Assembly (NCBI GenBank): GCA_004284765.1
Contig: NQJD01000013.1
Coordinates: 1-32,000 of the forward strand
Direction: 5' to 3'
Length of the DNA: 32,000 nucleotides
From: Candidatus Electronema aureum
Lineage (GTDB): Bacteria; Desulfobacterota; Desulfobulbia; Desulfobulbales; Desulfobulbaceae
Shown here in pieces: positions 10,523 through 25,705 of this stretch (position 1 is the first letter of the stretch; the number at the start of each line of letters is the position of its first letter). The notes under the pieces were generated by a model that had not been told where the DNA came from, made no database searches, and was given only the letters and a program-made list of their open reading frames with translations. The position numbers and the translations under genes are program-made.

Positions 10523-10969
10523 ATGAAAATAGGCGTGGTCGGATACAGTTTTAATAAGTTTGATCTTGATCTTGCTGCGAAAATGATGCGATCTGCATTT
10601 GATATTTTTGTCCCTAAAAATGCTGAATCAGAAAATATTGAAATAGTAAGCGGTCTGACAAATATCGGCGTTCCGAGAATTGCATATCAACTTGCAGACA
10701 GAAGAAATTTTATCACTGTTGGCATTTCTGCGGAACAGGCATTTCAAGTGCATTGCGGAGTGTACCCTGTTAAAAAACAGATAATTCGTGGCATCAATTT
10801 CGGTGATGAATCGGAGGTATTCATAAGATACATAGACTTTCTAATTAGAATTGGCGGCGGCAGGTAAAGTCATAAAGAAGTGAAGATGTTTATCGATAAA
10901 TGTGCAGCCTTTGGTTGGCAAAAATCCGAAAGACTGATTGAGCATGAGCTACCGATGTTCAATTCCTAA
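10523..10969 (+). pseudogene. SLOG/LOG-like Rossmann-fold protein gene with an in-frame TAA (114 aa + stop + 33 aa)
   Basis: MKIGVVGYS...VSGLTNIGVPRIAYQLA...RIGGGR, then TAA (10865-10867), then in the same frame SHKEVKMFIDKCAAFGWQKSERLIEHELPMFNS to TAA 10967-10969. The stop falls inside a GGGxxSxxE-type motif. The region is AT-rich and the family call is tentative. Confidence 0.45.
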
Positions 10970-11622
10970 TACAGCTCAAACCGCACATTCCAGCCGTTCC
11001 TGATGATGGTGTTGAAGATTGGCGTTTTCAGCTCCTGTGGTTTGAATCGCCAGTTTTCGGTGGTAGTTTGCTCAAAGGCACTGATTCCCCATTCTGGCCC
11101 GCTTCGCACATGGCAGAAGAAACGCGTTGAGGTCAGCAGGCCGAAGCTGACTTTAACCGGACAGAGGGAAAAATCTACGGCCCGCACTCGGTCTCGCATG
11201 ATCACAGTGCGGGTGGCGGTATCAAACTCCAAGGTCAGCTCGTACTGCTGGCGCAGGCGAGCTAAGGCCATCCAGCGACACCACGTTGGATCATCGCAAT
11301 GCCAGCTCAGGCGTATTTTCTTCCCCTTTTTCTCCGCTCGCACCGGGTTTGGAATTTCGTTAATGCCAAGCAGCATGAATTCCAGCATCTCCTGAAGCAC
11401 CGGCTCACCGTGTCTATGAAAAAACCAAACCTTGTGGATGATCAAGCGGAGTAGAAACGGAAAGGGCAGAATGTACAGAGCAGCCCAGACAGCCAACGCG
11501 GGCAGAAGAAGCTGGAATTTTAGATGCGGCCAGACTAAGAGCAGAGGTAGAAGACTCAAACCCCAACCGAGTGGCAGGAGCAAAAGCAGACCTAATGTCT
11601 TGGCGTAGCGAGTAAGCAGCAT
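10966..11622 (-). CDS. Hypothetical membrane protein (2-3 TM N-terminus plus soluble C-terminal domain)
   Basis: Start MLLTRYAKTLGLLLLLPLGW at ATG 11622 overlaps the ldcA stop (TGATG). The longer 274-aa version in the ORF track would lie inside ldcA. Confidence 0.65.
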   Translation of the reverse strand: MLLTRYAKTLGLLLLLPLGWGLSLLPLLLVWPHLKFQLLLPALAVWAALYILPFPFLLRLIIHKVWFFHRHGEPVLQEMLEFMLLGINEIPNPVRAEKKGKKIRLSWHCDDPTWCRWMALARLRQQYELTLEFDTATRTVIMRDRVRAVDFSLCPVKVSFGLLTSTRFFCHVRSGPEWGISAFEQTTTENWRFKPQELKTPIFNTIIRNGWNVRFELY

Positions 11623-12560
11623 CAGGGGCGAGCGCAGGTCTGGGGCAAAAATTCCAAGGTGCCGGTGAAGCTGTTCATCACCGCTTCCATGCCGATGGGC
11701 AGGGTATAATTTTCGCGCTGATGGCCAATCGGAAAACCTGCCCAGACCGGATACTTGGCCGCCGCCGTCAGCTCCAGCACCCGCTGCCAAACCTGCTCGT
11801 TGAGGCGAATGATTTCTAAGCGGTCATCATGGCCGGGATCAAACAGACCAAGAATCAGCCCAGTTATTTTGTCCAGCAGACCACCACAGGCGAGATGGGT
11901 CAGCATTCGGTCGAGTTTATAAAGCGGCTCGGCTGTGTCTTCAAGAAAGAGAATTTTTCCCGCAGTCTGCGGCTGCCACGGCGTACCCATCAGGTGACAA
12001 AGAGTGGTCAGATTACCGCCAACCAGTCGCCCTTGGCTGAAGCCACCACGAAGAATTTCTATGCCCGCAGGTCGGACGCAGGGTCGGAACTCACCCGCAA
12101 TTACTTCCCTGAATCGCTCAAAAGACAGGCGATCAGTCGTAGCTAAGGTGCTGATCATCGGCCCGTGCAGGGTGACAAGGCCGCAGTGAGCGGTAATGCT
12201 GTTCAACAGTACGGTCAGATCGCTGAAGCCAATGAGCCATTTTGGGTGGGCGCGGAGGAAATTCCAATCCAGTTTGCTGATGATCCGCAGGCAGCCGTAG
12301 CCACCACGAGCCGCGATCAATGCCTTGACTTCCTCATCTGCCCAGAGTCGGTGCAGCTCAGTCAACCTATGGCGGTCATCAGCAGCTAAATAATCTGTGC
12401 CAGAGCCGTTCGGTGGCTGGCAGCGAATGCGCAAGCCCAGATCACGCAGTACCTGAAGGCCTTGGGCAAAACCTTCCTCGTTCCGCACTGGCCCAGCAGG
12501 ATGAATAATACCAACTGTGTCGCCGGGCTGGAGAGAAGGAGGCAGAATCGGTTGTCGCAT
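11622..12560 (-). CDS. ldcA: LD-carboxypeptidase (muramoyl-tetrapeptide carboxypeptidase, peptidase S66)
   Basis: GDTVGIIHPAGPV, IIAARGGYGCLRI, GFSDLTVLL (Ser nucleophile context) and FPIGHQRENYTLPIG. Confidence 0.85.
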   Translation of the reverse strand: MRQPILPPSLQPGDTVGIIHPAGPVRNEEGFAQGLQVLRDLGLRIRCQPPNGSGTDYLAADDRHRLTELHRLWADEEVKALIAARGGYGCLRIISKLDWNFLRAHPKWLIGFSDLTVLLNSITAHCGLVTLHGPMISTLATTDRLSFERFREVIAGEFRPCVRPAGIEILRGGFSQGRLVGGNLTTLCHLMGTPWQPQTAGKILFLEDTAEPLYKLDRMLTHLACGGLLDKITGLILGLFDPGHDDRLEIIRLNEQVWQRVLELTAAAKYPVWAGFPIGHQRENYTLPIGMEAVMNSFTGTLEFLPQTCARP

Positions 12561-13375: not shown

Positions 13376-13600
13376 GAAAGTCACCGAGGTTGAGTGATCT
13401 GAACTGCTGCCGGATGTACCTTGAGAGCATTGCAGTTGACGGAACCCTGCCTGCCGGGTATAGACAAAGCCGGGCAGAGCAGTGTATCTGGCTCTGTCAG
13501 CTGATTTTAGCATCAAACCGGGCAGGGGAGCAATGACAAGCTGGCAGGAAGAATTAAAAAATGGCGCGGTGGACTGAACACAGGCACTGTGGAGAAAAAT

Positions 13601-15349
13601 ATGAACACTGTCGGGCAATGGATTGCGCAGCATCAGCATTTGCTGCTGGCTGGGTTCGGCCTGTTAGCTTTTGCCTTGCTGCTCAAATGCGGCGAGCGCA
13701 AAGGACGGATGCCGCATCTGATCTTCTTCCTTATCCTCTTCGTCATGGCCGCTGTGATTTACTTGGCCAAGGATGACCCAGCCATCTGGATTCCTGCGGC
13801 AATCGCTCTGCTGACTGTTGCCGCGCCAACAGCCTTGAGCTGGAAGCCAGCGGACCAGCCCGACGGGATGCGGCAGTATGAGGAGGAGCTGAAAACCCTG
13901 CGCCAGCAGATTCTTGATCTGCAAGCCTCCGGCTCAATGGCTGACGACAAGCAGCGGCAGCTTCTTGAAGCGCAGTTGCAGGCGGTGCAGGAGCATTTGA
14001 CCGACATCCGGGAGAGCTGGAAGGAGGAGCAGCAACGCCGCAAGGCTGCGGACGAGGCTCTTGAGCAGATGAAATGCCAGATGCCGGATGCGCGGATTGA
14101 AAAGGCGCAAGTCAGTCTGCGGCAGGGCGACACCAAGGCGGCGAAAGAGACCTTTGCCGAGGTGCGCAAGCAGGCGGGCAAAGCGGCGGCCTTGGCTGCG
14201 CACCACGAAGGGAAGCTGGCCGAAGGCGAAGTGAATTATGCCGAGGCGATGGAGCTGTACCGGACAGCCGCGCTGCTGGAAAAGGACAACCCGGACTATC
14301 TGCTGGCTGCCGGGAAGATGGCCCGCAAGCTCGCGGAGTACAAGCAGGCGCAGGAATGGCTGGAGCGGCTGCTGGAACTGCGGGAAAAGGAGGGAAAAAA
14401 TGATGCCGGATTGGGCGACGCGCTGTATGAGCTGGCTTTGCTGCATAAAGACTTGGGGCAATACGCGGCGGCGGAGCCGTTGTACCTGCGGGCGGTAGCG
14501 GTGAAGGAACAGGCTCTTGGCAAAGAGCATCCTGATGTGGCGGATGTGCTGAATGGCCTGGCTGCGCTGTATTGGCGGGAAGGAAAATACGCAGAAGCAG
14601 AGCCGCTGTATCTGCGTGCTCTCGCTGTGAAGGAGCAGGCTTTTGGCAAAGAGCATCCCAGCGTGGCGCAGACCTTGAACGATCTTGCGATATTGTATAG
14701 GAATCAAGAACGAGTTGCTGAAGCGGAATCTCTCTATCTGCGCTCTCTTGCAATTAGAGAGAAATATCTTGGCAAAGAACATCTTGACGTAGCAGAGAGC
14801 CTGAATAATCTCGCCTTGCTCTGCCGGAAGCAAGGAAGGTATTTAGAAGCAGAGCCGTTATGTCTTCGCTCACTTGCTATTAAAGAAGCTGTTCTTGGTA
14901 AAAAGCATCCACGTATAGCTGTAACTATAAACAATCTCGCTGTACTGTATCGTCAGCAAGGAAAGTTCAGAAAATCTGAGTCTCTGTCTCAGCGCGACTT
15001 GATAATAACTGAGAAAGCATTTGGCAAGGAGCATCCAGATGTTGCTGTCACTCTGAACAATCTCGCTGAACTTTACCGAATGCAAAGCAGATACGCAGAA
15101 GCGGAGCCGCTGCTTCATCGCGCTCTTCAAATTCGTGAGGACAAGCTCGGTAAAAACCATACCGCTGTCGCAACCACCCTGCACATCATGGCCGATCTCT
15201 ACCGCGACCAAGGAAGATACGCGGAAGCAGAGCCGCTGTATCAACGCGCCCTGTCCATCTTGCAGGCAAAACTCCCTGCCGGGCATTCGCGCATCAGCGG
15301 CTGCCAGAAGGACTACGATGAGATGAAGGAGAAGATGGCGGGGATGTAA
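13601..15349 (+). CDS. Membrane-anchored coiled-coil / tetratricopeptide repeat protein (7 kinesin-light-chain-type 42-aa TPR units)
   Basis: ATG 13601 lies 6 nt after GGAG. There are three hydrophobic helices, then a Q/E/K-rich coiled-coil segment, then 7 units of the type LNNLAxLYRxQGRYxEAEPLYxRALAIxExxLGKEHPDVA. Confidence 0.9.
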   Translation: MNTVGQWIAQHQHLLLAGFGLLAFALLLKCGERKGRMPHLIFFLILFVMAAVIYLAKDDPAIWIPAAIALLTVAAPTALSWKPADQPDGMRQYEEELKTLRQQILDLQASGSMADDKQRQLLEAQLQAVQEHLTDIRESWKEEQQRRKAADEALEQMKCQMPDARIEKAQVSLRQGDTKAAKETFAEVRKQAGKAAALAAHHEGKLAEGEVNYAEAMELYRTAALLEKDNPDYLLAAGKMARKLAEYKQAQEWLERLLELREKEGKNDAGLGDALYELALLHKDLGQYAAAEPLYLRAVAVKEQALGKEHPDVADVLNGLAALYWREGKYAEAEPLYLRALAVKEQAFGKEHPSVAQTLNDLAILYRNQERVAEAESLYLRSLAIREKYLGKEHLDVAESLNNLALLCRKQGRYLEAEPLCLRSLAIKEAVLGKKHPRIAVTINNLAVLYRQQGKFRKSESLSQRDLIITEKAFGKEHPDVAVTLNNLAELYRMQSRYAEAEPLLHRALQIREDKLGKNHTAVATTLHIMADLYRDQGRYAEAEPLYQRALSILQAKLPAGHSRISGCQKDYDEMKEKMAGM

Positions 15350-15397: not shown

Positions 15398-15694
15398 TCA
15401 TGCAGTCTGCTTGGCATCAACATGCCGCTGAAGCACGGCGTTGAGTTCAGCCTGCCATCCCTCGCCCCGCGCCTTGAAAAACTCGACAATCTCCCTGTTG
15501 ATGCGGACAGCAAGCTGCGCTTCCTTCTTCCCGTTCTGCGCAGGACGCTTCACCGGTCTGCCGTTCTTGTACAGCTTCCCCTCAGCAAAGAAGGCATCCG
15601 GCAGCTCCGGGATTTCATCATATTCAGCTTGGCTGATCTCGTGGCTGTCAACCTTCTGCAAATTGCTTTTCAAACCAGCGTTGCTCTCTTTCAT
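15398..15694 (-). CDS. brnA: BrnA-type antitoxin (DUF4415-like)
   Basis: 98 aa. ...EIPELPDAFFAEGKLY...GRPV...QLAVRINREIVEFFKARGEGWQAELNAVLQ matches the BrnA pattern. SD GAGGAAGG. It overlaps the toxin gene by 47 nt. Confidence 0.8.
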   Translation of the reverse strand: MKESNAGLKSNLQKVDSHEISQAEYDEIPELPDAFFAEGKLYKNGRPVKRPAQNGKKEAQLAVRINREIVEFFKARGEGWQAELNAVLQRHVDAKQTA

Positions 15695-15929
15695 TGGCCT
15701 TCCTCATGGAAATGATGCGAATACTGTCGCCTCGCCCGGTGTGAACAATAACAACCAAGCGGCCAGCAAGCTCGCCCATTGTTATCTCTCTGCATTCTCC
15801 ATATTCCTGCCGCGTGTCCGCCCATGTGATGCGGCGCGGGCCGTTGAACACCTCCGGCGCGTCTTCAAAATCAAGTCCCCGCTCGTCCAAAGCCGCCTGC
15901 CGCTTCTTGCTGTCGTATTCAATCCTCAT
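15648..15929 (-). CDS. brnT: BrnT-type toxin (DUF497 ribonuclease family)
   Basis: MRIEYDSKKRQAALDERGLDFEDAPEVF...ECREITMG...LVVIVHTGRGDSIRIISMRKANEREQRWF. The first ATG is at 15929; the ORF-track start is a TTG. The toxin gene lies upstream of the antitoxin gene, as in BrnTA. Confidence 0.8.
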   Translation of the reverse strand: MRIEYDSKKRQAALDERGLDFEDAPEVFNGPRRITWADTRQEYGECREITMGELAGRLVVIVHTGRGDSIRIISMRKANEREQRWFEKQFAEG

Positions 15930-16019
15930 CGTTTCATTGTAATGACAGAACCTGCTCTGTTTCAAGCAGTTTTTTCAAAGAGGCAAGCGGCGCGGAATGA
16001 TCTCGAACGCATTGAAAAT

Positions 16020-16086
16020 CATTCGCGCATCAGCGGCTGCCAGAAGGACTACGATGAGATGAAGGCGAAGATGGCGGGGATGTAGG
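16020..16086. repeat. Direct repeat copy 2 (67 bp; orphan copy of the TPR gene tail including a stop codon)
   Basis: It would encode HSRISGCQKDYDEMKAKMAGM followed by TAG. No TPR homology lies upstream of it. Confidence 0.9.
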
Positions 16087-16112: not shown

Positions 16113-18878
16113 TCATGCCTTCTGAATTCTGGTTTTGATGTACTTCAGCGGCGGCGTGCCCGACCATTTACAGGCCAGATTCGGCGGCAACAAGACATTC
16201 GTGTTAAAGCCGCCACAGCCGGGAAACTTTGGATCGCCTTCTAGCCCATATCTGCCGCCGAAACCGCCTGCTGCCGCAATCACACCCTGCCGGATGTCCC
16301 ATGTGACCTTGGCTGCCGCTTTAATTTCACCCCAAGGCGAGGCGACGATCACTTGATCGCCGTCAGCGATGCCGAGCTTTTTTGCGTCCATCCAATTGAT
16401 CCAGACAGGATTGCTGCTACATTGGTTCATCAGGGCCGGATTCCAGCAGGTGGAAGTGTGTTCATGCTCCAGCACTCGGAAGTAGCCGAGAATCAACGGA
16501 TAGTCAGTATCAGGCCGCAGCTCTGGCCAATCCTCCCACGGCGGAAGATAATCAGGCAGGGCATTCAATCCGGCCTTTTCTGCAACCGGATTGATGAAAT
16601 TGTACTTGCTGGTCGCGCTGTGACCTGAAGCTCCGTAGCCGGACGGCGGGTTAATGGAACCCCACTGCTCATATTTGCGGAACGCCTGCGGATCAGTGAT
16701 AAAATAGCCGGTCTCGCGCAGTTCCTCCAGTGTCACCCGCTGATTGCGGAGCTGGTTGCGCATGTATTCCTCTTCGCTTTGCCACGGGAAGAACTCGCCA
16801 AAGCCTAGCCGCTGCGCCAGCTCGGTGAAAATCTGTACCACCGGCCTTGAATCATACAAGGGCTGCACCGCTTTCTCTCCGAGCGAGATGAAAGATTCAT
16901 ACATCCAGTCTGAGGCCACGCGGCTTTGCTCTAAATACGTGCAATCGGGCAACACCACGTCGCACAGCTCGGCAGTGTTACTCATGTAGCAGTCAATGGC
17001 GCAGGAAAACTCCAGCCGCTCCATCGCCCGCCGCAAACTCGGCTCCGCGCCGCTCGACATAACCGGATTACCGAAATAACAAAGCATCGCTTTCAGTCGC
17101 CCGGCCTGCGCATCTTCCTCAAAATAGGCGGGAATCCAGCCGCTCCAAAGCCTGCCGGGATTGAGCTTGAATTTTGCGGCGTTGTTCGGTGGCTTAGGCT
17201 GATTGTCCGCCCATGCTGAGGCCAGCTTGAATTTGCTGACCAAAGCCGGGCCGCCCGGCGCGTCAAAGCTGCCCATAAGGGCGTTTAGAGCTTGAATGGC
17301 TTGGGTGGCATGGGTGGCGTTCGGTGCCTGAGCCACACCGGTCCACGAAAGTGCGGCGGTGGCAGGCGCAGCTGAGGCGAATTCGTGGGCCAGCCGGGTT
17401 ATAGTTGCGGCAGGCACCCCGCAGATCGTCTCGGCCCATTGCGGCGTGCGGGCAATGCCATCCCCCTCTCCTAAAAGCCGTTTTTTGAACTCGGCGAACC
17501 CGTAGCACCAGTTTTCAGTGAACGCCTGGTCGTGCAGATTGTCCGCCACGATGACGTGGCACATCGCCATTGCCATCGCCCCGTCTGTGCCGGGAATGAT
17601 CGGAATCCACTCCGTCGCAATCTGCGCAGTCTCGCAGCGGCGCGGGTCAACCACCACTAACTTGGCCCCATTTTTCACCGCCTGCTTGAGCAAGTTGACT
17701 TTGCGCTGTCCGGCGGAAGTCGCCAGCTCATTGATGCCGAAGAGCAGAATGTACTGCGAATGGGCATAGTCAATCCAAGGCCGCTTTTCGCCAAGACAAT
17801 GCTCGTTCGCCATGCGGTTGGGATTGTCGCACATCTGGCGATGGGTGGTCTTGTTCGGCGTGCCGTAAGCGGCCATCACTGCGTCGTGGCACCAACTATT
17901 GTAGTCGTTGCCCTGATGAAAGCCAACCGTCTTCGGATCAAAGCTCTTCAGCTTGGCGGCAAGCAGATCAAGTGCCTCGTCCCATTCCGCTTTGCGGAAT
18001 CTGCCGTTCTCGCGAATCAGGGGAGTTTTGAGACGATAGGCGGAATAGGTGTTTTTATGCGCATTTGCCCCTTTGATGCAAAGCCGTCCGCCGCCTTTGG
18101 GATCACCAGCCAATCCCTTGCAGCCGACAATCACCCCGTCTTTCACCCGCACCTCCTGCCCGCAAAGACCAAGGCAGATATAGCAGTGCGTCTTGACGAC
18201 GTGTTCCGGCTCTATCTGCGCCGAGCCTTCAACCAGCGTGACTAAGGTCTTGTTTAACTCCAGCGCAGCAAGAATCGGTTCCAGCACTACCAGCGCACTG
18301 TCTGCTGCTGACAGCACAGCCATCGTCAGTTCAGCCAGCCCTTTATAGAAATCTGTTTTAGCCAAAGCAGCAAGCTGGGCACAAAACTTGTCCGCCCAAG
18401 ACAGCAAGTGATTCTGGAGAAAATCAGCCTGTCGTTCCTCGTTGCCGGGCTGTGCCGCCAAATAAGCCATGAATTCCAGTTCAACCGCAATATGATCGTC
18501 CAAATCCGGCCAAGCAGGATTGAGATGCACCCCGCTATCGTGATAAATTTTCCGTACCTGAAAGATTGGCTCCTGCATGACCAGCGGCTCGCCGGAAAGA
18601 TGGCAGGAAGCATAGGGAAAAGCAGGATTCTGACCTGCATTGAGAAACAGCTCTGCGTAGTCATGGCGCAGCTCGCGGAAAACTGCCTCTGTCGGGGCGG
18701 ACTGGAGAAAATCGATCATCCGGGGTAGGCCAGATGACCGCTTTTTGCTGAAAAAATGCTCAGTAACCTGACTATTTGCAAGTTTTCTCAGCAAGGGCAA
18801 AGAAATTTCATCCCGATACAACAGGGAAATAAAGCGGTAGATTGTTGATCGCGCTAACTTCATTTGAGTGCCCATCAT
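16113..18878 (-). CDS. Molybdopterin (Mo/W-bisPGD) oxidoreductase catalytic subunit fused N-terminally to a TorD/DmsD/NarJ-type chaperone domain; no Tat leader
   Basis: Residues ~10-190 carry DYAELFLNAGQNPAFPYASCHL, DDHIAVELEFMAYL and FYKGLAEL (TorD family). Then come C232-x2-C235-x3-C239...C267 (4Fe-4S), THRQMCDNP (candidate Cys ligand), VVVDPRR and IPIIPGTDGA, and a C-terminal GIADGDQVIVASPWGEIKAAAKVT barrel. It is a single 921-aa ORF. Confidence 0.9.
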   Translation of the reverse strand: MMGTQMKLARSTIYRFISLLYRDEISLPLLRKLANSQVTEHFFSKKRSSGLPRMIDFLQSAPTEAVFRELRHDYAELFLNAGQNPAFPYASCHLSGEPLVMQEPIFQVRKIYHDSGVHLNPAWPDLDDHIAVELEFMAYLAAQPGNEERQADFLQNHLLSWADKFCAQLAALAKTDFYKGLAELTMAVLSAADSALVVLEPILAALELNKTLVTLVEGSAQIEPEHVVKTHCYICLGLCGQEVRVKDGVIVGCKGLAGDPKGGGRLCIKGANAHKNTYSAYRLKTPLIRENGRFRKAEWDEALDLLAAKLKSFDPKTVGFHQGNDYNSWCHDAVMAAYGTPNKTTHRQMCDNPNRMANEHCLGEKRPWIDYAHSQYILLFGINELATSAGQRKVNLLKQAVKNGAKLVVVDPRRCETAQIATEWIPIIPGTDGAMAMAMCHVIVADNLHDQAFTENWCYGFAEFKKRLLGEGDGIARTPQWAETICGVPAATITRLAHEFASAAPATAALSWTGVAQAPNATHATQAIQALNALMGSFDAPGGPALVSKFKLASAWADNQPKPPNNAAKFKLNPGRLWSGWIPAYFEEDAQAGRLKAMLCYFGNPVMSSGAEPSLRRAMERLEFSCAIDCYMSNTAELCDVVLPDCTYLEQSRVASDWMYESFISLGEKAVQPLYDSRPVVQIFTELAQRLGFGEFFPWQSEEEYMRNQLRNQRVTLEELRETGYFITDPQAFRKYEQWGSINPPSGYGASGHSATSKYNFINPVAEKAGLNALPDYLPPWEDWPELRPDTDYPLILGYFRVLEHEHTSTCWNPALMNQCSSNPVWINWMDAKKLGIADGDQVIVASPWGEIKAAAKVTWDIRQGVIAAAGGFGGRYGLEGDPKFPGCGGFNTNVLLPPNLACKWSGTPPLKYIKTRIQKA

Positions 18879-18915
18879 CTTGCTCTGCTTGTCAAATCTA
18901 ATTGCTTTTTATGCC

Positions 18916-19809
18916 TTACTCGCCAGCTTTCATGCCAATTGTACGTAAACACTCAAGCACTGGGGCATAATCAACAGCCTGTTTCCAACCGCTTATTTTT
19001 GCACCCTGCGCTGCTGAAGAATTTTCCTTCATGTCTATAAGGGCTGAGGAAACTTTTTTACTCACATCAGTCTTGACATGAGCAAGAGCAGCTAAGGGCC
19101 ATTCAGGATAAAGAACAGTTGAGTGAACAAAAGGGAAATCATCCTCAACTTTATTGATAATCCTGAAATCATCCATGTTGATTTTTCCATCTTCTGCCAT
19201 TCGCTCTAATGTATCGGTACGCACTGTCCCTACATCAACAAGCTTATCCGCAACAGCATGAACGACCTGCTCATGGGTGCCAATCTCTGCATATCCTAAG
19301 CAGTCTTTTTCCGGGTCGATGCCGTTGGTCTTCAGCAGATACAAGCCAGCATGAAGTCCACCAAATGAAGATTTCTTAACAAAACCAAATTTTTTCCCTT
19401 TGATATCCTCCAGCTTTTCAATCAGGCTATCTTTGCGGACAAAGATCACACCGCCAAACTGATGTACGCTTTTATTTTTGATTTTGTTGATCATGGTTGC
19501 TACAGCTTTCACGCCGTATTTTTCCCCCATTTCCGCGACAATGGCAGGATTAGCCAAGATGAAATCAATCTTTTTCTCTTTGATTGCTGCGTCCATAGCA
19601 AGAAAGGTTACAGGCATGACGGAGAACGAGATCCCTGTGGCTTTGCTAAGATATTCCCCGTGTCCATTCCATTGCGTGATGACCTCGCTGGCACCGTTTT
19701 TTGCCAGTACCCCGATTGTATACTCCTCCGCAGCTGCCTGAAAGGTCTGTAGCAGGACGAATGCCGCTAACATAGCGGTAGCTAATAATAATCTGTTTCT
19801 ACGAATCAT
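18916..19809 (-). CDS. PhnD-like periplasmic substrate-binding protein (phosphonate-bd fold)
   Basis: Signal peptide ...LLQTFQAAA, then YTIGVLA, IDFILANPA, GGVIFVRKDS, IKGKKFGFVKKSSFGG and GTVRTDTLERM. SD AGGAG. It ends 37 nt upstream of the oxidoreductase ORF on the same strand. Confidence 0.8.
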   Translation of the reverse strand: MIRRNRLLLATAMLAAFVLLQTFQAAAEEYTIGVLAKNGASEVITQWNGHGEYLSKATGISFSVMPVTFLAMDAAIKEKKIDFILANPAIVAEMGEKYGVKAVATMINKIKNKSVHQFGGVIFVRKDSLIEKLEDIKGKKFGFVKKSSFGGLHAGLYLLKTNGIDPEKDCLGYAEIGTHEQVVHAVADKLVDVGTVRTDTLERMAEDGKINMDDFRIINKVEDDFPFVHSTVLYPEWPLAALAHVKTDVSKKVSSALIDMKENSSAAQGAKISGWKQAVDYAPVLECLRTIGMKAGE

Positions 19810-20066
19810 GTTGTATCTCCTACGTGTTAAATATGCTCCCCAACTGCCCTAACCAAACGGCGCAAGCCTATCCGGGAATGTTCAAAAAATCAAGAGAGAA
19901 GCAGAGTAGTGGCAAAAATTTCCTTCCTCACACTCTTCTCGTCTCCGGCTAATACTTCCTGAACATTTTTTCATTCAAGTAGCACTCTGACAGTCCATGT
20001 ATTCTTTCGTCGGCCAGTACCGTACAAAAGAAGGGGGATAACTCAAACCGTTCTCAGGGAGAAAGC

Positions 20067-21473
20067 ATGAAGAACAGCGGAACAGTACGTCTTTTAGCCT
20101 TTGTTGCAACTTTTGCCGCCGTAGTGAGCACGCAGGAATGCTTGGCTCAGGCGCAAAAACAGAACAAAGAAACCATCTTGCGCATTCATGGCTCTAACAC
20201 CATTGGCGCACAGCTTGCGCCGGATTTAGCTAAAGTCTTTTTGCAAAAGCTGGGCGCGGATTCAGTCAAACAGGTTGATCTCGCCGCAGGCACCGAGATT
20301 AACATCGAAGGGCATTTTCCCAATCAAGAGCTGGTTAAGGTCATCGAAATCCGGGCGCACGGCTCTTCTACCGGTTTCAAGGGACTGAAGGACAAGCAAT
20401 GCGACATTGGTATGGCCTCTCGGAAGATTAAAGACAATGAAGCGCAAGAGTTAGCTTTTCTCGGCGAGATGACGAGCAGTGCCAGCGAGCATGTTTTGGC
20501 CTTAGACGGTGTAGCGGTGATCGTCAATAGCGCGAATGCTGCTGTGTCCAAGCTGAGTTTCGCCCAATTGTCCGACATTTTTTCCGGCAAGCTGATAAAT
20601 TGGTCGAAAATTGGCTGGGCAGACGCGCCGATCAGCATTCAGGCGCGGGATGAGAACTCAGGTACGCACGACACATTTCAGAGCATCGTGTTGGGCGAGA
20701 AAAAAATGGACGGGGCGGCGAAACGCTGGGATTCCAACGACAATCTTTCTGCGGCGGTCAACGCTGATACCCACGCGATTGGCTATTGTGGCCTGCCTTA
20801 TGTCAAGCACAACAAAGCCTTGGGTATTTCCGATGGTGGCCCAGCAGTACGGCCCACGGTTTTTACCGTTGCTACTGAAGATTATCCGGTTAGCCGCCGC
20901 CTTTATTTTTACACCCCGGCTGCTCCAGAAAATTCGTACACGCAGGACTTCATCGCCTTTGCCTTGAGCCAAGAAGGACAGGAGCAGGTCAGAAAGCACA
21001 AATTTGTTGATTTGACCATTTCTGCTGAGGAACACAAGGTTGATGTCGCGTTGGGAACGAACCAAAATTACCAAGTGCTGTATAAATATCTGACTGCCGT
21101 GCGAGGTGCGAAACGACTGTCGGCAAACTTCCGCTTTAAAGGAGAAACGCTTGAATTAGACAACCGATCCTTGCGCGATGTTGAACGAATAGTGGATTTT
21201 CTGGCGGAAAATAGAGCAAAGGAAATTATTTTAGCAGGATTTTCCGACCGCAGTGAGGATATAGCCCGCAATATAGAAGGACCTACTGATAATAAATACG
21301 CCAAGAATTTTGATCTTTCCTGCAAACGGGCGGAAGCCGTTAAAGAAGAGCTGAATTCACGCGGTATCAAAATTGGCGATATCCTTTGTGTCGGCAGCGA
21401 GATGCCAGTCGCGTCGAATAGTACCGAACTGGGTCGGGAGAAAAACCGCCGGGTTGAGGTCTGGGTGAGATGA
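20067..21473 (+). CDS. PstS-like phosphate-binding domain fused to a C-terminal OmpA-like peptidoglycan-binding domain
   Basis: Signal peptide; GSNTIG, HGSSTGF, CDIGMASR, ALDGVAVIVN and LSDIFSGKLINW (PBP-like type 2). The C-terminal segment LAGFSD...SCKRAEAVKEEL...NRRVEVWV is OmpA-like. Confidence 0.85.
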   Translation: MKNSGTVRLLAFVATFAAVVSTQECLAQAQKQNKETILRIHGSNTIGAQLAPDLAKVFLQKLGADSVKQVDLAAGTEINIEGHFPNQELVKVIEIRAHGSSTGFKGLKDKQCDIGMASRKIKDNEAQELAFLGEMTSSASEHVLALDGVAVIVNSANAAVSKLSFAQLSDIFSGKLINWSKIGWADAPISIQARDENSGTHDTFQSIVLGEKKMDGAAKRWDSNDNLSAAVNADTHAIGYCGLPYVKHNKALGISDGGPAVRPTVFTVATEDYPVSRRLYFYTPAAPENSYTQDFIAFALSQEGQEQVRKHKFVDLTISAEEHKVDVALGTNQNYQVLYKYLTAVRGAKRLSANFRFKGETLELDNRSLRDVERIVDFLAENRAKEIILAGFSDRSEDIARNIEGPTDNKYAKNFDLSCKRAEAVKEELNSRGIKIGDILCVGSEMPVASNSTELGREKNRRVEVWVR

Positions 21474-21509
21474 CCGCATCAATTCCTCATGTTCTCACAA
21501 CAATCCTCT

Positions 21510-21519
21510 GACAATTGTC
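21510..21519. promoter_or_regulatory. Perfect 10-bp palindrome upstream of the Cys-rich operon (possible operator)
   Basis: GACAATTGTC lies 65 nt upstream of ATG 21584. There is no further support. Confidence 0.25.
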
Positions 21520-21583
21520 TGGTTGAATGAGGGCAGTCGAAGTGGAGAAGCAGCTGGCTGACATTTTCAAATGAGGAGGAGTC

Positions 21584-21787
21584 ATGCTGGAACGAAATGA
21601 GAGTACCTTGGAGCGGGCCTTGGAAAAAGCGGCAAAGATCATCTGTAGCTTGCAATACGGACGCTGTCCTGTCCAGGAAGAGCATTTTCCCGGCTGTCCC
21701 AGCGTGTGCAATGAGGACAGCCTGCCGTGGCAGTGCTGGGTTTCCTATCTGCGGGCCACCGCAACCGGGGCAGGGGCAGCGGCGTGA
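21584..21787 (+). CDS. Small Cys-rich protein (67 aa), unknown function
   Basis: Strong SD GAGGAGGAG lies 2-5 nt before the ATG. The composition is plausible: a helical N-terminus (ESTLERALEKAAKIICSL), then RCPVQEEHFPGCPSVCNEDSLPWQCW. The overlapping frame of ORF 21597.. looks like R/S/P/G-rich noise here. Confidence 0.55.
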   Translation: MLERNESTLERALEKAAKIICSLQYGRCPVQEEHFPGCPSVCNEDSLPWQCWVSYLRATATGAGAAA

Positions 21788-21815
21788 CGATGGACTGCAA
21801 TCTGCGGGTGCCAGC

Positions 21816-22145
21816 TTGGCGTGGAAGACGGAAAAGAACAAACTGAACTGCTGGGAGTTCAAAGAATGCGGCAGGGAGCCGGGCGGTCGCAACGCGGCAT
21901 TGTTCGGAATCTGTCCCGCCGCTGTTGTGCAGCAGGCGGACGGCATACATGACGGCAAAAACGGCGGACGCTGCTGCTGGTTCGTGACCGTTTCTTTCTC
22001 CAAAGGCAAACCTCAAGGAGGTTGCTCAGAAAACTCCGGCTGCTGCTGGAGCTGCAAATTCTACAATCTGGTCAGAAACGAAGAGCATACCGGTTTCATC
22101 CTCCGATATATCAGTCCAAGCCGGATACGGCCTGTTCAAAAATAA
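21816..22145 (+). CDS. Two-CW-type Cys-rich domain protein (~109 aa; start codon uncertain, TTG 21816 proposed)
   Basis: NCWEFKECGREPGG...GICPA...GKNGGRCCW...CCWSCKFYNLVRNEE matches my recollection of the family labelled two-CW domain. There is no in-frame ATG after the upstream gene's stop. A terminator follows. Confidence 0.65.
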   Translation: MAWKTEKNKLNCWEFKECGREPGGRNAALFGICPAAVVQQADGIHDGKNGGRCCWFVTVSFSKGKPQGGCSENSGCCWSCKFYNLVRNEEHTGFILRYISPSRIRPVQK

Positions 22146-22173
22146 CTGCCCGTCTTTCCTTTTGTCTCAACCG

Positions 22174-22204
22174 GCCAGCCAAAATTTCAGCTGGCTGCTT
22201 TTTT
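22174..22204 (+). terminator. Rho-independent terminator of the Cys-rich operon
   Basis: GCCAGC (22174-22179) pairs with GCTGGC (22190-22195) around a 10-nt loop, followed by tgcTTTTTT. Confidence 0.6.
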
Positions 22205-22435
22205 CTATTTTTCCGCATTCCTCATCAAATTTTCATTGCTGCTTAACACATTCCTAACACCTGCCGGTTAAATAATTGGTCAGGAGAGTTACGCCAGTTC
22301 CCTCTGCGGCAAGGCAACCAGTGCAAGCTCCGGCACTGTGTCGCGGTAGGGAGCTGCTCTTTTCACGACAGGCTGTGTTGATGGCATGTCGCTGCCGTCA
22401 TGTTGGATATGAATCAATTTTCTAAGGAGAGAGAG

Positions 22436-23590
22436 ATGAGAAAACTGTATTTTCAAGGTGCAATCACCTTGACTGCCGGAGCCATGCTGCTCGGCGCATC
22501 AACTCGAGCGTCTGCGCTGGAGATCAAATCCGGCAACGACAAAGTTGATGTACAGCTTAAAGGCCATATCGCCAGAGCAATGATGATGGCTGATGACGGC
22601 AATGACAGCAAATTTTTTCACGTTGATAACAGCAACTCGGAGAGCCGAATTATTCTTGATGGTAAGGTCAAAGCCTCTGATTCCCTCACTGTTGGTAGCA
22701 CTTTTGAGGTGCAATGGCAGGCAAATCCATCTGACAAAGTGTCAATGGGTGAAGAAACTATCTCCGGTGAATTCAAAGAACGAATCATGGAGGTTTATTT
22801 TGATGCCAAAGATATGGGCAAATTTTCCTTGGGACGCGGTGACATGGCTTCAGACGACAGCACCGAAGTTGATTTATCCGGTACTGATTTAGCAGGCAAT
22901 TCCGGTGTAGCTGACGTGGGCGGCAGTTTCAAATTTTACGATCCCGCAGCGGAAGCACTCGTTCCTGATGAAAACGGCGAAGTCGTCGATAACCGCTTGG
23001 CGGTGAGCAATGTCTTTGACAACATGGACGGTTTGAGCCGGAGAAACCGGGTGCGCTACGACACGCCCAAGTTTGCAGGTTTCGGTCTCGGTGTTTCCAC
23101 TGGTGAAAAGGAAATGGCTGATGTCACGCTGATTTATTCCGGCGAGTTGAGCGGCACTAAGTTAGAAGGTGCGCTGGCTTGGTCTGATCCGGGCAGTGAG
23201 AAAAGCTACAGTCAAATCAACGGCTCCGCCTCGCTGCTGTTCGATTTTGGCCTTAATTTTACCGCTGCGTTTGGTAGCCGCGATGTAGATAACATGCCTG
23301 CGGGCGGCGATGAGCCGACCTTCACGTATGGCAAAATTGGCTACAAATGTGACAAACTGCTGCCTTTTGGTTCTACCGCTGTTTCTGTGGATTACGGCGC
23401 GTACGAGAACGTCAAGCATCAGAATAAAGGCGAGGAAGGCACTGCCTACGGCCTTCAGCTGGTGCAAAAGGTGTCTGACTGGAACACCGAGCTGTATGCG
23501 GCATGGCGTAATTTTGAGTTAGAGGATAACAGCGGCGCAGGCTACGAGGATATTTCGATTGTTATGGCCGGGGTACGGCTCAAATTCTAA
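22436..23590 (+). CDS. Outer-membrane porin (beta-barrel), paralog 1
   Basis: SD TAAGGAGAGAGAG before ATG 22436. Signal peptide ...ASTRASA. Alternating beta-strand pattern and a C-terminal ...VRLKF with terminal Phe. Confidence 0.8.
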   Translation: MRKLYFQGAITLTAGAMLLGASTRASALEIKSGNDKVDVQLKGHIARAMMMADDGNDSKFFHVDNSNSESRIILDGKVKASDSLTVGSTFEVQWQANPSDKVSMGEETISGEFKERIMEVYFDAKDMGKFSLGRGDMASDDSTEVDLSGTDLAGNSGVADVGGSFKFYDPAAEALVPDENGEVVDNRLAVSNVFDNMDGLSRRNRVRYDTPKFAGFGLGVSTGEKEMADVTLIYSGELSGTKLEGALAWSDPGSEKSYSQINGSASLLFDFGLNFTAAFGSRDVDNMPAGGDEPTFTYGKIGYKCDKLLPFGSTAVSVDYGAYENVKHQNKGEEGTAYGLQLVQKVSDWNTELYAAWRNFELEDNSGAGYEDISIVMAGVRLKF

Positions 23591-23604
23591 GCAGGAAAAT
23601 CAGC

Positions 23605-23637
23605 GGCGGATGTCCCTATCTACCCGGGACATCCGCC
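23605..23637 (+). terminator. 12-bp-stem hairpin after porin 1
   Basis: GGCGGATGTCCC (23605-23616) pairs perfectly with GGGACATCCGCC (23626-23637). The downstream sequence is T-rich but has no clean run. Confidence 0.5.
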
Positions 23638-23762
23638 CTTCAATCGTTCTTGCTTCTTCTAACTCTCTCGGTTGATAATCTTTTTCTCTGGAAAAACAGA
23701 TTCTACCGAGGTATTATGATACAAAAGTTTTCACCGTCATAATTTTTCAGGAGAGAAGAACG

Positions 23763-24902
23763 ATGAAGAAACAAAAAATCACATTGGCTGCTGCGGCCTT
23801 ATTGCTTGCTACCGCCACCGGTGCTGCGGCTTTAGAGGTTAAAACCGGTAGTGATAAAGTGAATGTCGAGCTGTACGGTCAGATCAACCGGGCGATTATG
23901 AATGTTGATGATGGCAATGAAAGCAAGGTCTTTCATGTGGATAACATCAACTCTAGCACCAGAGTTGGTTTAAACGGAAAGATTGAAGCTGCCGATTATC
24001 TAACCGTGGGCAGCCAGTTCGAAGTAGAATGGATGGCCAATCCTTCTGATAAGGTGTCAATGGAGGAAGAGAGCATTACCGGTAAGTTTGAAGAGCGGTT
24101 GATGGACATTTATCTTAATTTTAAGAATATCGGTAAATTCTCTGTCGGCAAAGGGAAAATGTCCTCTGATGACACATCCGAGGTTGATTTATCCGGTACG
24201 TTAGTAATCTCCAATTCGGATGTGGCCGATGTGGGCGGCGGCATCAAGTTTTATGATTCAGCAGCTCCGGTTTCTGTTCCGCCTGCCGAGGGCGAGGAAG
24301 TCGTGGACAAGCGACTGGCAGTAATCGATGTATTCAACAACATTGACGGTTTGAGTCGGAAAAATCGGGTGCGTTACGATACGCCTTCTTTTGCTGGTTT
24401 CGGATTAACCGCAGCTGTGGGTGAAAAAGATGTTGCTGACATCGCCTTGACTTATTCCGGCGAATTGAATGGAACTAAGCTCAAAGCAGCTGTGGCGTAT
24501 TCTGATCCGAATAAAAATTACACGCAGATCAATGGTTCGGCCTCAGCCCTGTTTCCTTTTGGTTTCAGTTTAACCGCCGCCTCTGGTGTTCGCGACGTGG
24601 ACGATATGCCAGCTGGCAGTGATGATCCTGTTTTTACCTACGGTAAAGTCGGTTATCTCTGCAACGAGTTATTCCCGGTCGGTTCTTCAGCACTATCTGT
24701 TGATTATGGTGTGTACAAGAACATCAAACAGCAAAATCTCGGTCAAGAGGGAACAGCGATGGGTGTGCAGTTTGTTCAGCAGCTTGCTGACTGGAACTCC
24801 GAGCTATATGCGGCTTATCGCAATTTTGAGTTGGAAGATACTACCGAAGCAAACTACGAAAATATCAACATTGTAATGGGTGGCGCACGGTTTAAGTTCT
24901 AA
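23763..24902 (+). CDS. Outer-membrane porin, paralog 2
   Basis: Aligns with paralog 1 over its full length, at roughly 60% identity by eye. SD AGGAGAG. Signal peptide ...TGAAA. C-terminal ...ARFKF. Confidence 0.8.
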   Translation: MKKQKITLAAAALLLATATGAAALEVKTGSDKVNVELYGQINRAIMNVDDGNESKVFHVDNINSSTRVGLNGKIEAADYLTVGSQFEVEWMANPSDKVSMEEESITGKFEERLMDIYLNFKNIGKFSVGKGKMSSDDTSEVDLSGTLVISNSDVADVGGGIKFYDSAAPVSVPPAEGEEVVDKRLAVIDVFNNIDGLSRKNRVRYDTPSFAGFGLTAAVGEKDVADIALTYSGELNGTKLKAAVAYSDPNKNYTQINGSASALFPFGFSLTAASGVRDVDDMPAGSDDPVFTYGKVGYLCNELFPVGSSALSVDYGVYKNIKQQNLGQEGTAMGVQFVQQLADWNSELYAAYRNFELEDTTEANYENINIVMGGARFKF

Positions 24903-25003
24903 GCAGGTCGTTCCCTATTTTCCCACCTGTGCTGGAGATGCCGCTTGGTATCTTCAGCCGTTTTTCCTCGTTCGCCGCCCCCTTTTCTTTCCACACATCT
25001 CTA

Positions 25004-25705
25004 ATGGCAAAAGAAAAAATCCTGATAATTGAGGACGCGGAGGATATCCTTGAATTAGTCCGCTACAATTTAGCCAAAGAAGGCTATCAGGTGAGTTGCG
25101 CCATGTCCGGCGAAGAGGCCTTGAATGCGGTACGTCAGGCCACTTTTGATTTGATTTTGCTGGATATTATGCTACCAGGTTTAGACGGCTTGGAGGTCTG
25201 CCGACGGCTGCGGCGGAACATCGCCACAGCTCATGTCCCCATCATTATGCTCACTGCCAAAAGCGAAGAAACCGACATGGTGGTCGGCTTGGAGCTGGGC
25301 GCGGATGATTACATGACCAAGCCTTTTAGCCCGCGTGTGCTCACTGCCCGCATTCGGGCCGCGCTGCGCCGCTCGCAACAGGAAGGTCAGTTGGAAGAAA
25401 AAGCTGATATCTTCAGCTTCGGCGATTTGCAAATTGACTGCTCACGTCACGAAGTTTCGGTCAAAGGCGAGTTAGTGCGCCTAACCGCCACTGAGTTTGG
25501 CATTTTGCTTTGCCTAACCAAGCGACCTGGCTGGGTCTTTAGTCGTTATCAGATTGTTGAGGCGGTACGCGGCGAGGATTACAGCGTCACCGACCGAGCT
25601 GTGGATGTGCAAATTGTTGGCCTACGAAAAAAGCTCGGCGAGCTGGGTTGCTGCATTGAAACTGTGCGCGGGGTTGGCTATCGTTTTAATGCTCAAACCG
25701 GGTGA
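25004..25705 (+). CDS. OmpR/PhoB-family response regulator (receiver plus winged-helix)
   Basis: MAKEKILIIEDAEDI, LILLDIMLPGLDG, MLTAKSEE...GADDYMTKPF, and a C-terminal LTATEFGILL...VRGVGYRF. There is no histidine kinase gene in the window. Confidence 0.9.
   Translation: MAKEKILIIEDAEDILELVRYNLAKEGYQVSCAMSGEEALNAVRQATFDLILLDIMLPGLDGLEVCRRLRRNIATAHVPIIMLTAKSEETDMVVGLELGADDYMTKPFSPRVLTARIRAALRRSQQEGQLEEKADIFSFGDLQIDCSRHEVSVKGELVRLTATEFGILLCLTKRPGWVFSRYQIVEAVRGEDYSVTDRAVDVQIVGLRKKLGELGCCIETVRGVGYRFNAQTG

Follow-up and report, generated by a model that had tools for sequence, protein, structure and literature searches.

We describe here a gene in which a chaperone of the TorD/DmsD/NarJ family is joined in frame to the catalytic subunit of a molybdenum or tungsten (Mo/W) oxidoreductase. 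It lies on the minus strand of the window, that is, the whole stretch of DNA analyzed, 32,000 nucleotides (nt) from the freshwater cable bacterium Candidatus Electronema aureum (contig NQJD01000013.1, positions 1 to 32,000; assembly GCA_004284765.1). The fusion is a real, conserved and apparently uncharacterized variant of a known enzyme-chaperone system. We consider it reasonably probable that its product is a functional, cytoplasmic, single-polypeptide reductase of the PsrA/PhsA-like branch with a Mo/W bis-pyranopterin guanine dinucleotide (Mo/W-bisPGD) cofactor, that it is matured in cis by its TorD domain, that it acts on a sulfur anion, and that the periplasmic substrate-binding protein (SBP) encoded just upstream is an incidental neighbor. 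The gene, its parts and this neighbor are as follows, with the support for each in brackets.

16113..18878, minus strand: the whole fusion gene, 921 amino acids (aa), with TorD domain, linker, FS0 and Mo/W-bisPGD domains (open reading frame (ORF), four Pfam domains, AlphaFold2 (AF2) model).

18264..18878, minus strand: TorD/DmsD/NarJ-family chaperone domain, residues 1-205 (Pfam PF02613, NCBIfam TorD, PDB 1n1c, and the ratio of nonsynonymous to synonymous substitution rates, dN/dS).

18198..18263, minus strand: linker, residues ~206-227 (alignment conservation, predicted local distance difference test (pLDDT), dN/dS).

18036..18197, minus strand: FS0 [4Fe-4S] domain, residues 228-281, with C232/C235/C239/C267 (Pfam Molybdop_Fe4S4; invariant Cys).

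17829..17831, minus strand: codon of C350, the predicted Mo/W ligand in an invariant HRxMCD motif (alignment to Cys173 of PsrA).

16113..18035, minus strand: Mo/W-bisPGD binding domains, residues 282-921 (Pfam Molybdopterin and Molydop_binding; PsrA, PDB 2vpw, as best solved relative).

18916..19809, minus strand: PhnD-fold periplasmic binding protein, 297 aa, adjoining the fusion gene (Pfam, NCBIfam).

18879..18915, minus strand: the 37-nt intergenic gap from the SBP gene to the fusion gene (direct reading).

The fusion ORF is free of interruptions, and the protein, whose N-terminus reads MMGTQMKLARSTIYRF..., is 100% identical to the NCBI entry 'thiosulfate reductase [Candidatus Electronema aureum].' A Pfam scan placed all four domains above their gathering scores: Nitrate_red_del (TorD family, PF02613) at residues 54-167 (E=1.3e-28, 100.2 bits vs. 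22.2), Molybdop_Fe4S4 at residues 226-279 (35.6 bits), Molybdopterin at residues 282-689 (E=3e-40, 139 bits vs. 24) and Molydop_binding at residues 795-913 (67 bits vs. 26.8). In an alignment of 48 homologs, all four cysteines of the FS0 motif (C232-x2-C235-x3-C239-x27-C267) are invariant, as are C350 and its HRxMCD motif. With phmmer, C350 aligns with Cys173 of T. thermophilus PsrA, which we take to be the Mo ligand in the PsrABC structure. Judged by these profiles and motifs, the protein is a catalytic subunit of the dimethyl sulfoxide (DMSO)-reductase (Mo/W-bisPGD) superfamily with a genuine PF02613 domain. No twin-arginine motif was found in the N-terminus or linker of the E. aureum protein, nor in 47 of the 48 family members, and no gene for a 4Fe-4S ferredoxin (PsrB/PhsB) or an NrfD-type anchor (PsrC/PhsC) occurs across the 32-kb window. 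An earlier sequence-only reading had described the single uninterrupted 921-aa ORF, the 297-aa SBP ORF and the gap between them, the TorD-like N-terminus with its motifs, the cysteine pattern at the start of the Mo/W-bisPGD subunit, and the lack of both a twin-arginine motif and a nearby ferredoxin or anchor gene; its coordinates and all of these features hold, the profile hidden Markov model (HMM) check that it proposed having been run.

The architecture is widespread within a restricted group of bacteria. At least 115 of the best 120 protein clusters carry the same four domains, and a genome scan that took one genome per species gave 80 related loci, every one of which encodes the fusion. 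Seventy of these are full-length and uninterrupted and come from independent assemblies, closed genomes among them. The loci derive from Electronema, Electrothrix, Desulfofustis, Desulfocapsa, Desulforhopalus, Desulfopila and Desulfobacteraceae, with further ones in Ca. Desulfaltia, Desulfatiglandales and Desulfovermiculus; the fusion clade spans Desulfobulbales, Desulfobacterales and Desulfohalobiaceae. When the catalytic half was searched against a library clustered at 50% identity, one fused representative scored 878 bits and the next match fell to 336 bits at 38% identity. The fused proteins thus form a tight and isolated clade, with at least 50% identity within it and at most 38% to all else.

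Possible unfused forms were sought with a TorD-only search, which returned 10 matches, three of them inspected. The three split cases inspected (Ca. Electrothrix scaldis and the loci L089 and L088) are all lesions of the fused gene. With 80 loci encoding the fusion, the suspicion that it could be a singleton, which the sequence-only reading had itself raised, falls away. In E. scaldis (P0087; L092, CP138355, 4173-6965) a single in-frame TGA stands at the codon of Arg265, whose context is GGGRLC in all other homologs; it may reflect a nonsense mutation or an error of sequencing, or it may mark a site of read-through. The apparent split at L089 is a frameshift, and that at L088 combines a deletion of ~13 codons with a frameshift and has lost FS0 cysteines C235 and C239. 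This degenerate copy (L088, 4567-12738) has upstream of it genes for an SBP, an sCache-PAS kinase, a sigma-54 regulator and a single receiver domain (REC), and downstream RnfC, RnfD and RnfG genes plus a further Rnf/Nqr-family gene cut by the end of the locus. The TorD-only match P0416 belongs to an ordinary NrfD-ferredoxin-MoA-TorD operon (34% identity).

Several Mo enzymes outside the clade are also worth recording. The nearest leaderless outgroup (P0243/P0391) has no TorD gene nearby. Around P0391 (loci L085-L087) we observed two tandem leaderless Psr-like Mo enzymes with DUF1638 and YdjY, an 867-aa Fer4_20/Pyr_redox_2 flavoprotein, and adjoining ArsR-rhodanese regulators and S-adenosylmethionine (SAM) methyltransferases; this would be another uncharacterized cytoplasmic Mo-enzyme system in Desulfobacterales. 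A second, distant TorD-Mo enzyme fusion (P0371, 30% identity) suggests that such fusions may have arisen more than once. Other fusions take a different form: in P0277 and P0311 a PsrB-like four-cluster ferredoxin is joined N-terminally to the Mo subunit, and in P0304 the Mo enzyme is fused to a class-V aminotransferase (cysteine-desulfurase-like).

The chaperone half is a full-length domain. Residues 6-204 align end to end with Shewanella massilia TorD (PDB 1n1c residues 6-206; 80 bits), and the TorD-family motifs, namely H129 of D-x-D-D-H and the block F78/L79/N80/P85/P88/Y89/S91, are invariant in the 48 sequences. From L196 to C232 the chain is a tether of fixed length (positions 196-231 are ungapped in the same alignment), in which L206 is invariant and L208, T214, L215 and G218 are at least 81% conserved; this linker occupies the position where Tat (twin-arginine translocation)-dependent relatives have their signal peptide. 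An AF2 model of the full chain, built on the 48-sequence alignment, has a pLDDT of 86.6 (93 for linker residues 210-229) and a predicted template modeling score (pTM) of 0.89. Because this pTM is too high for a freely placed domain of 205 residues (22% of the chain), we infer that the TorD domain is confidently positioned against the catalytic core in the model. Over 101 gene pairs, dN/dS by the Nei-Gojobori method amounts to 0.084 in the TorD domain, 0.131 in the linker and 0.066 in the catalytic part, values that indicate strong purifying selection on all three segments. The invariant motifs and the dN/dS of 0.084 are indirect signs that the TorD domain may have kept its chaperone activity in cofactor insertion.

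These features suggest a mechanism. The TorD domain would hold the apo-enzyme in a state competent for Mo-bisPGD insertion, in cis, and the fixed-length, leucine-rich linker may serve as a vestigial leader lying in the peptide-binding groove of the chaperone. NarJ provides a precedent in binding the leaderless N-terminus of cytoplasmic NarG. The mature enzyme would stay in the cytoplasm, and FS0 would be its route of electron exchange with a soluble carrier, for example a ferredoxin, whose gene lies elsewhere; it would act by reducing or cleaving an inorganic sulfur anion (thiosulfate, polysulfide). On the nature of the carrier there are hints only: an NAD(P)H-type FeS flavoprotein is the neighbor of the nearest leaderless outgroup, and Rnf genes adjoin the degenerate copy at L088. 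As to the linker, redox enzyme maturation proteins (REMPs) are reported to recognize chiefly the hydrophobic core of leaders (PMC3316669).

The same evidence could be taken to mean that the TorD domain is now a permanent structural or regulatory subunit, for instance covering the FS0 face where PsrB docks or gating the funnel for donor or substrate. Such a role would agree with the strong selection that maintains the domain in the mature polypeptide, with its confident placement relative to the core in the model, and with the lack of a PsrB partner at all loci; moreover, since the nearest leaderless outgroup has no adjacent TorD gene, cytoplasmic relatives may not strictly need a chaperone. 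Against it, the invariance of the TorD/DmsD motifs (DH with H129; F/L/N...P..PY.S) fits retained chaperone chemistry, the interface is a prediction from model scores, and the roles of subunit and chaperone are in any case compatible. We regard this alternative as unlikely as a replacement for maturation in cis.

For the catalytic half, the closest solved relative is T. thermophilus PsrA both by sequence (PDB 2vpw, 237 bits) and by fold (Foldseek E=5e-41, TM 0.79); ArrA, FdhH and Nap are also among the fold matches. To compare gene neighborhoods, ORFs at the 80 loci were called and clustered. In Desulfocapsaceae the typical order begins with a phosphoenolpyruvate (PEP)-synthase-like protein (PPDK_N plus PEP-utilizers), a DSP-type phosphatase, a sigma-54 response regulator and a 160-aa membrane protein, continues with a PAS histidine kinase (HK), a single REC, the fusion gene and a GAF-GAF-PAS-HisKA protein, and ends with a TauE/SafE permease that has a long N-terminal extension (its TauE identity was confirmed by Pfam) and a membrane protein of ~200 aa. 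Desulfobacteraceae have the same gene set in a divergent layout. At the 34 loci flanked on each side by 5 kb or more, profile searches within 5 kb found HK at 27, REC at 27 and the sigma-54 activator at 26, two counts that may overlap as the REC and activator profiles share the receiver domain, GAF-PAS at 24, TauE at 17 and an SBP at three. In 8 of 14 cases, vs. a background of 2%, the first gene of the operon is preceded at a distance of ~88 nt by a -24/-12 element (TGGCGC-N5-TGTGCA). There is no conserved ferredoxin-type partner, ferredoxin-like ORFs being present within 5 kb at only 4 of 81 loci.

Some of these neighborhoods include an SBP of their own. A PhnD-like family different from that of the E. 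aureum SBP occurs near the fusion gene at six diverse loci (L006, L046, L061, L068, L077 and L088), in most cases with a histidine kinase gene adjacent or close by. The six proteins form a separate clade (46-69% identical to one another, 22-29% to the window SBP), outside of which the window SBP groups with SBPs from unrelated contexts. Models for phosphonate, phosphite and 'putative selenate' SBPs score similarly on this clade. It is plausible from this arrangement that in some lineages the fusion-associated SBP and the kinase act as a sensor for the operon of the enzyme. The idea that a periplasmic binding protein is linked to the enzyme therefore survives as a sensor formed with this other clade, and not for the SBP in the window.

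Given the affinity to PsrA and PhsA (the best-matching NCBIfam model), the TauE neighbor and the sulfur-cycling taxa that carry the gene, the substrate may, by analogy, be thiosulfate, polysulfide or another inorganic sulfur anion; this is the least certain part of the explanation. Several observations weigh against the explanation as a whole. The NCBIfam TorD model covers residues 3-191 with 102.7 bits, below its equivalog cut-off of 132, and the PhsA model reaches 315.8 bits, below its cut-off of 694. That the TorD domain docks, and that the linker acts as a vestigial leader, are predictions for which pTM, pLDDT and conservation are the whole basis. The SBP and fusion genes may be co-transcribed, no terminator-like or sigma-70-like site being reported in the gap 18879-18915, although possible co-transcription carries no evolutionary weight. 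The E. aureum window has lost the whole conserved context (TauE, HK, sigma-54), and function would here be transferred from relatives. In Dissulfuribacter thermophilus a trio of 'PEP synthase,' TauE-co-occurring membrane protein and TauE is up during thiosulfate disproportionation (PMC13490349), and the genes flanking the fusion in Desulfocapsaceae match this trio by annotation and gene order alone. For no member of the clade did we find an experiment, expression data or a substrate test in the literature. Finally, His145 and Arg332, presumably the substrate-binding and active-site residues of PsrA, correspond to G323 and T513 in a pairwise phmmer alignment whose moderate identity makes it indicative only. 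Because these equivalents are not conserved, the substrate may be one other than polysulfide. With the DmsD model also well short of its cut-off (59 bits vs. 162), the profile scores put the E. aureum protein outside PhsA, PsrA, TorD and DmsD at equivalog level.

A substrate without sulfur (arsenate, selenate, an N- or S-oxide, or an organic compound), or a non-redox hydration as in acetylene hydratase, has also to be weighed. Acetylene hydratase is a cytoplasmic monomer with FS0 and W-bisPGD, and together with ArrA and formate dehydrogenases it comes next among the best solved relatives. Further, the protein stays below every family cut-off and lacks the substrate residues of PsrA, and the fusion-associated SBP clade matches the 'putative selenate' model nearly as well as the phosphonate models. 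However, PsrA is best by both sequence and fold and PhsA is the best HMM, the taxa are sulfur-cycling Desulfobacterota, and the conserved neighbor is a permease of the TauE/SafE (sulfite-exporter) family. Acetylene-hydratase-like chemistry itself was rejected: the residue after C235 is L, A or G in every homolog of the alignment and never the Asp that, directly after the second FS0 Cys, we take to be essential in acetylene hydratase. A non-sulfur substrate is thus a possibility that we rate as low. We hold to a similarly tentative degree, and as an unlikely extension, a broader proposal in which the clade is a self-maturing, one-chain cytoplasmic reductase of the thiosulfate/polysulfide type, with TorD as a permanent subunit in place of both the Tat leader and PsrB. 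Together with the TauE permease, its co-occurring membrane protein and a sigma-54 three-component sensor (PhnD-like SBP clade plus kinase), the enzyme would constitute an unrecognized step, located in the cytoplasm, of sulfur disproportionation and of the sulfide oxidation of cable bacteria.

The SBP gene in the window had been read as a meaningful partner of the enzyme, whose substrate might be related to the anion recognized. That it encodes a signal-peptide-bearing PhnD-fold protein is well supported: it matches Phosphonate-bd (E=3.7e-50, 171 bits vs. a cut-off of 27), falls marginally under the cut-off of TIGR01098 (111.4 bits vs. 112.05) and shows a Sec-type signal peptide (MIRRNRLLLATAMLAAFVLLQTFQAAA/EE). 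Among NCBIfam models it matches TtrS best, over the periplasmic domain (137 bits vs. a cut-off of 750, model positions 2-252 of 555), and the 297-aa protein has no kinase domain. ArrX and PhnD are its only meaningful PDB matches; WD40 entries were also returned and were treated as spurious, being repeated weak matches to one 30-residue stretch. The surrounding features are listed here.

18725..19948, unstranded: segment without a counterpart in E. nielsenii, made up of the SBP gene together with the 5'-terminal ~50-60 codons of the fusion gene (blastn synteny).

20067-21473, plus strand: PstS-family/OmpA fusion, the first of the divergent neighbors (cluster 20067..25705) that travel with the SBP gene.

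21597-22145, plus strand: two-CW protein (NCBIfam 'two-CW domain,' 92 bits vs. a cut-off of 35).

22400-24902, plus strand: two Porin_4 genes, part of the cluster 20067..25705.

24929-25705, plus strand: PhoB-like response regulator, part of the same cluster.

Comparison with the sister species E. nielsenii (~95% nucleotide identity on both flanks) indicates how the SBP came to its position. Synteny halts at window position 18724 and restarts at 19949 (blastn), and in between E. nielsenii (L001) has genes for a porin and for a TauE/SafE permease of 405 aa, in divergent orientation to the fusion gene. The two fusion genes are ~100% identical from about codon 65, ~65% identical over the first ~60 codons and without similarity upstream, a pattern that places the recombination breakpoint inside the 5' end of the fusion gene; these first ~60 codons are replaced in E. 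aureum and show a 7-codon deletion relative to relatives. As Electronema sp. PJ also has TauE genes at the position of the SBP, the E. aureum arrangement is the derived one, a lineage-specific replacement. An 87%-identical SBP ortholog (L081/L082) is divergent from a PstS-family/OmpA gene and is followed by no fusion gene; similarity between this locus and the window breaks off exactly at the stop codon of the SBP gene, and the next gene encodes PhoU (186 bits, above cut-off). Further close homologs of the SBP stand as orphans amid housekeeping genes. The 468-aa PstS-family/OmpA protein of the window, which has phosphate-binding and peptidoglycan-anchoring domains, also occurs at L081 (4376-5770) and L001 (5474-6946). 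Its gene, the two Porin_4 genes and the PhoB-like gene suggest a phosphate-type envelope cluster, to which the window SBP probably belongs. Within this cluster the two-CW ORF is Cys-rich, is kept in E. nielsenii and is overlapped by a long antisense ORF (21479-22009).

Could the SBP and the fused enzyme nevertheless be a functional unit in E. aureum, the SBP binding, sensing or delivering the anion of the enzyme from co-transcribed genes? The shared strand, the short gap with no terminator-like site and the TtrS ligand-sensing domain as best match (TtrS being a tetrathionate sensor) would favor it, and the six loci with the other PhnD-like clade indicate that such partnerships exist. Yet the window SBP lies upstream of the fusion gene at none of the 80 related loci, the adjacency was made by a replacement that E. 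nielsenii lacks, the closest ortholog sits between PstS-OmpA and PhoU, and identity to the fusion-associated clade is low. Nor is there a gene for an ABC permease, ATPase or histidine kinase close to the SBP in the window, and no ABC permease or ATPase gene adjoins its homologs P0122, P0126 and P0130. A functional unit is therefore distinctly improbable. The simplest reading of the comparison is that a recent replacement event placed the SBP beside the fusion gene, and the SBP does not appear to be an evolutionarily coupled partner of the enzyme. Of the proposal that this is a cytoplasmic enzyme chaperoned in cis with a substrate tied to the SBP, the first part fits the conservation, the selection on TorD domain and linker, and the pTM of the model, and the second is not supported.

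It is extremely improbable that the E. aureum fusion stems from an error of assembly or annotation, or is a pseudogene in decay, as the three interrupted relatives and the replaced, partly deleted 5' end might suggest, given that the same uninterrupted architecture recurs in the 70 full-length loci, that the window protein keeps all family-invariant residues and that dN/dS is far below 1.

Further features of the window were noted in passing. A BrnT toxin/BrnA antitoxin pair (15398-15965, minus strand) lies 150 nt downstream of the stop of the fusion gene and sits between the two copies of a 65-nt direct repeat (98% identical; 15284-15348 and 16020-16084) that duplicates the 3' end of a tetratricopeptide repeat (TPR)-protein gene (13589-15349); the pair looks like an insertion that copied its target. 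The 480-aa ORF at 30483-31925 (minus strand) joins endonuclease III (Nth, HhH-GPD) to a complete exodeoxyribonuclease III (Xth), which puts two base-excision-repair enzymes in one polypeptide. Between ~26000 and 29500 the GC content is 37-39%, vs. ~50-57% elsewhere, and the genes encode a hexapeptide acyltransferase, a methyltransferase, a family-2 glycosyltransferase and a WbqC-like protein; this is probably a horizontally acquired surface-polysaccharide island. Three ORFs on the minus strand have no Pfam match (7803-9503, 566 aa; 10966-11790, 274 aa; 858-1568, 236 aa), and a fourth (25693-26604, minus strand, 303 aa) has no Pfam match and a weak NCBIfam match only. No tRNA genes were found in the window.

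In the established view, a REMP chaperone is a protein of its own, which binds the Tat leader and the apo-enzyme of its client and afterwards departs. Nature has here fused the chaperone to a client without a leader and conserved the fusion, and this offers a system in which to ask whether the chaperone must dissociate and what it binds when there is no leader. Whether one polypeptide can mature itself is a related question, and the answer would aid heterologous expression of Mo/W enzymes. How sulfur or thiosulfate is handled in the cytoplasm is a gap in current models of Desulfobulbales and cable bacteria (PMC10821171), and a recent proteomic study draws attention to Phs-like enzymes without leader and to TauE modules (PMC13490349). 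The fusion clade, with members in Electronema, Electrothrix, Desulfocapsa, Desulfofustis and others, is a concrete candidate for this step, and culturable carriers exist in Desulfofustis glycolicus DSM 9705 and Desulforhopalus vacuolatus DSM 9700. The sequence-only reading did not know the arrangement as described, and our literature search agrees: no description of the fusion was found in the full texts searched, a coverage outside of which lie the cable-bacteria genome paper of Kjeldsen et al. 2019 (PNAS) and its supplement.

Among known systems, TtrS, ArrX and PhnD share the PhnD fold with the window SBP, which differs in being a stand-alone protein without kinase domains, nearby ABC partners or a conserved linkage to the enzyme. 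PsrA (T. thermophilus PsrABC, 2vpw) and PhsA resemble the fusion in the FS0 motif and the position of the Cys ligand and are its best sequence, fold and NCBIfam matches; however, identity is ~27%, and the fusion lacks a Tat leader, PsrB/PsrC genes and equivalents of His145/Arg332 and has an N-terminal TorD domain. With the TorD/DmsD/NarJ REMPs it shares a full-length domain of the TorD fold and the family motifs. It is also like NarJ-NarG in that the client would stay cytoplasmic without a functional twin-arginine leader. Unlike REMPs, which act in trans as separate proteins, the chaperone of the fusion is covalently joined to its client and retained at all 80 loci. The words 'fused' and 'fusion' are absent from a survey of the NarJ subfamily of chaperones (Bay et al. 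2015, PMC4464133).

Two systems linked to sulfur disproportionation come nearer. The MOLY cluster (MolyA, MolyB and the TorD-like MolyC), a candidate marker of sulfur disproportionation in Desulfobacterota (PMC9676032, PMC12998232), likewise pairs a Psr/Phs-like Mo enzyme not with a membrane anchor but with a chaperone of the TorD family. It consists, however, of three genes, includes a B subunit and has a predicted location outside the cell, reached via Tat, whereas the fusion is one polypeptide with neither B subunit nor leader. In D. thermophilus a leaderless cytoplasmic PhsAB-like enzyme (DITHS69_2027/2028) is up during thiosulfate disproportionation (PMC13490349). As far as descriptions allow comparison, this enzyme and that of Desulfolithobacter dissulfuricans are, like the fusion, Phs-like and free of a Tat leader and membrane subunit, with a proposed role in cytoplasmic thiosulfate cleavage; they differ in having a separate FeS B subunit and no reported fused chaperone. 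By analogy, the leaderless cytoplasmic PhsAB-like enzyme of sulfur disproportionators would be the closest functional concept to the fusion.

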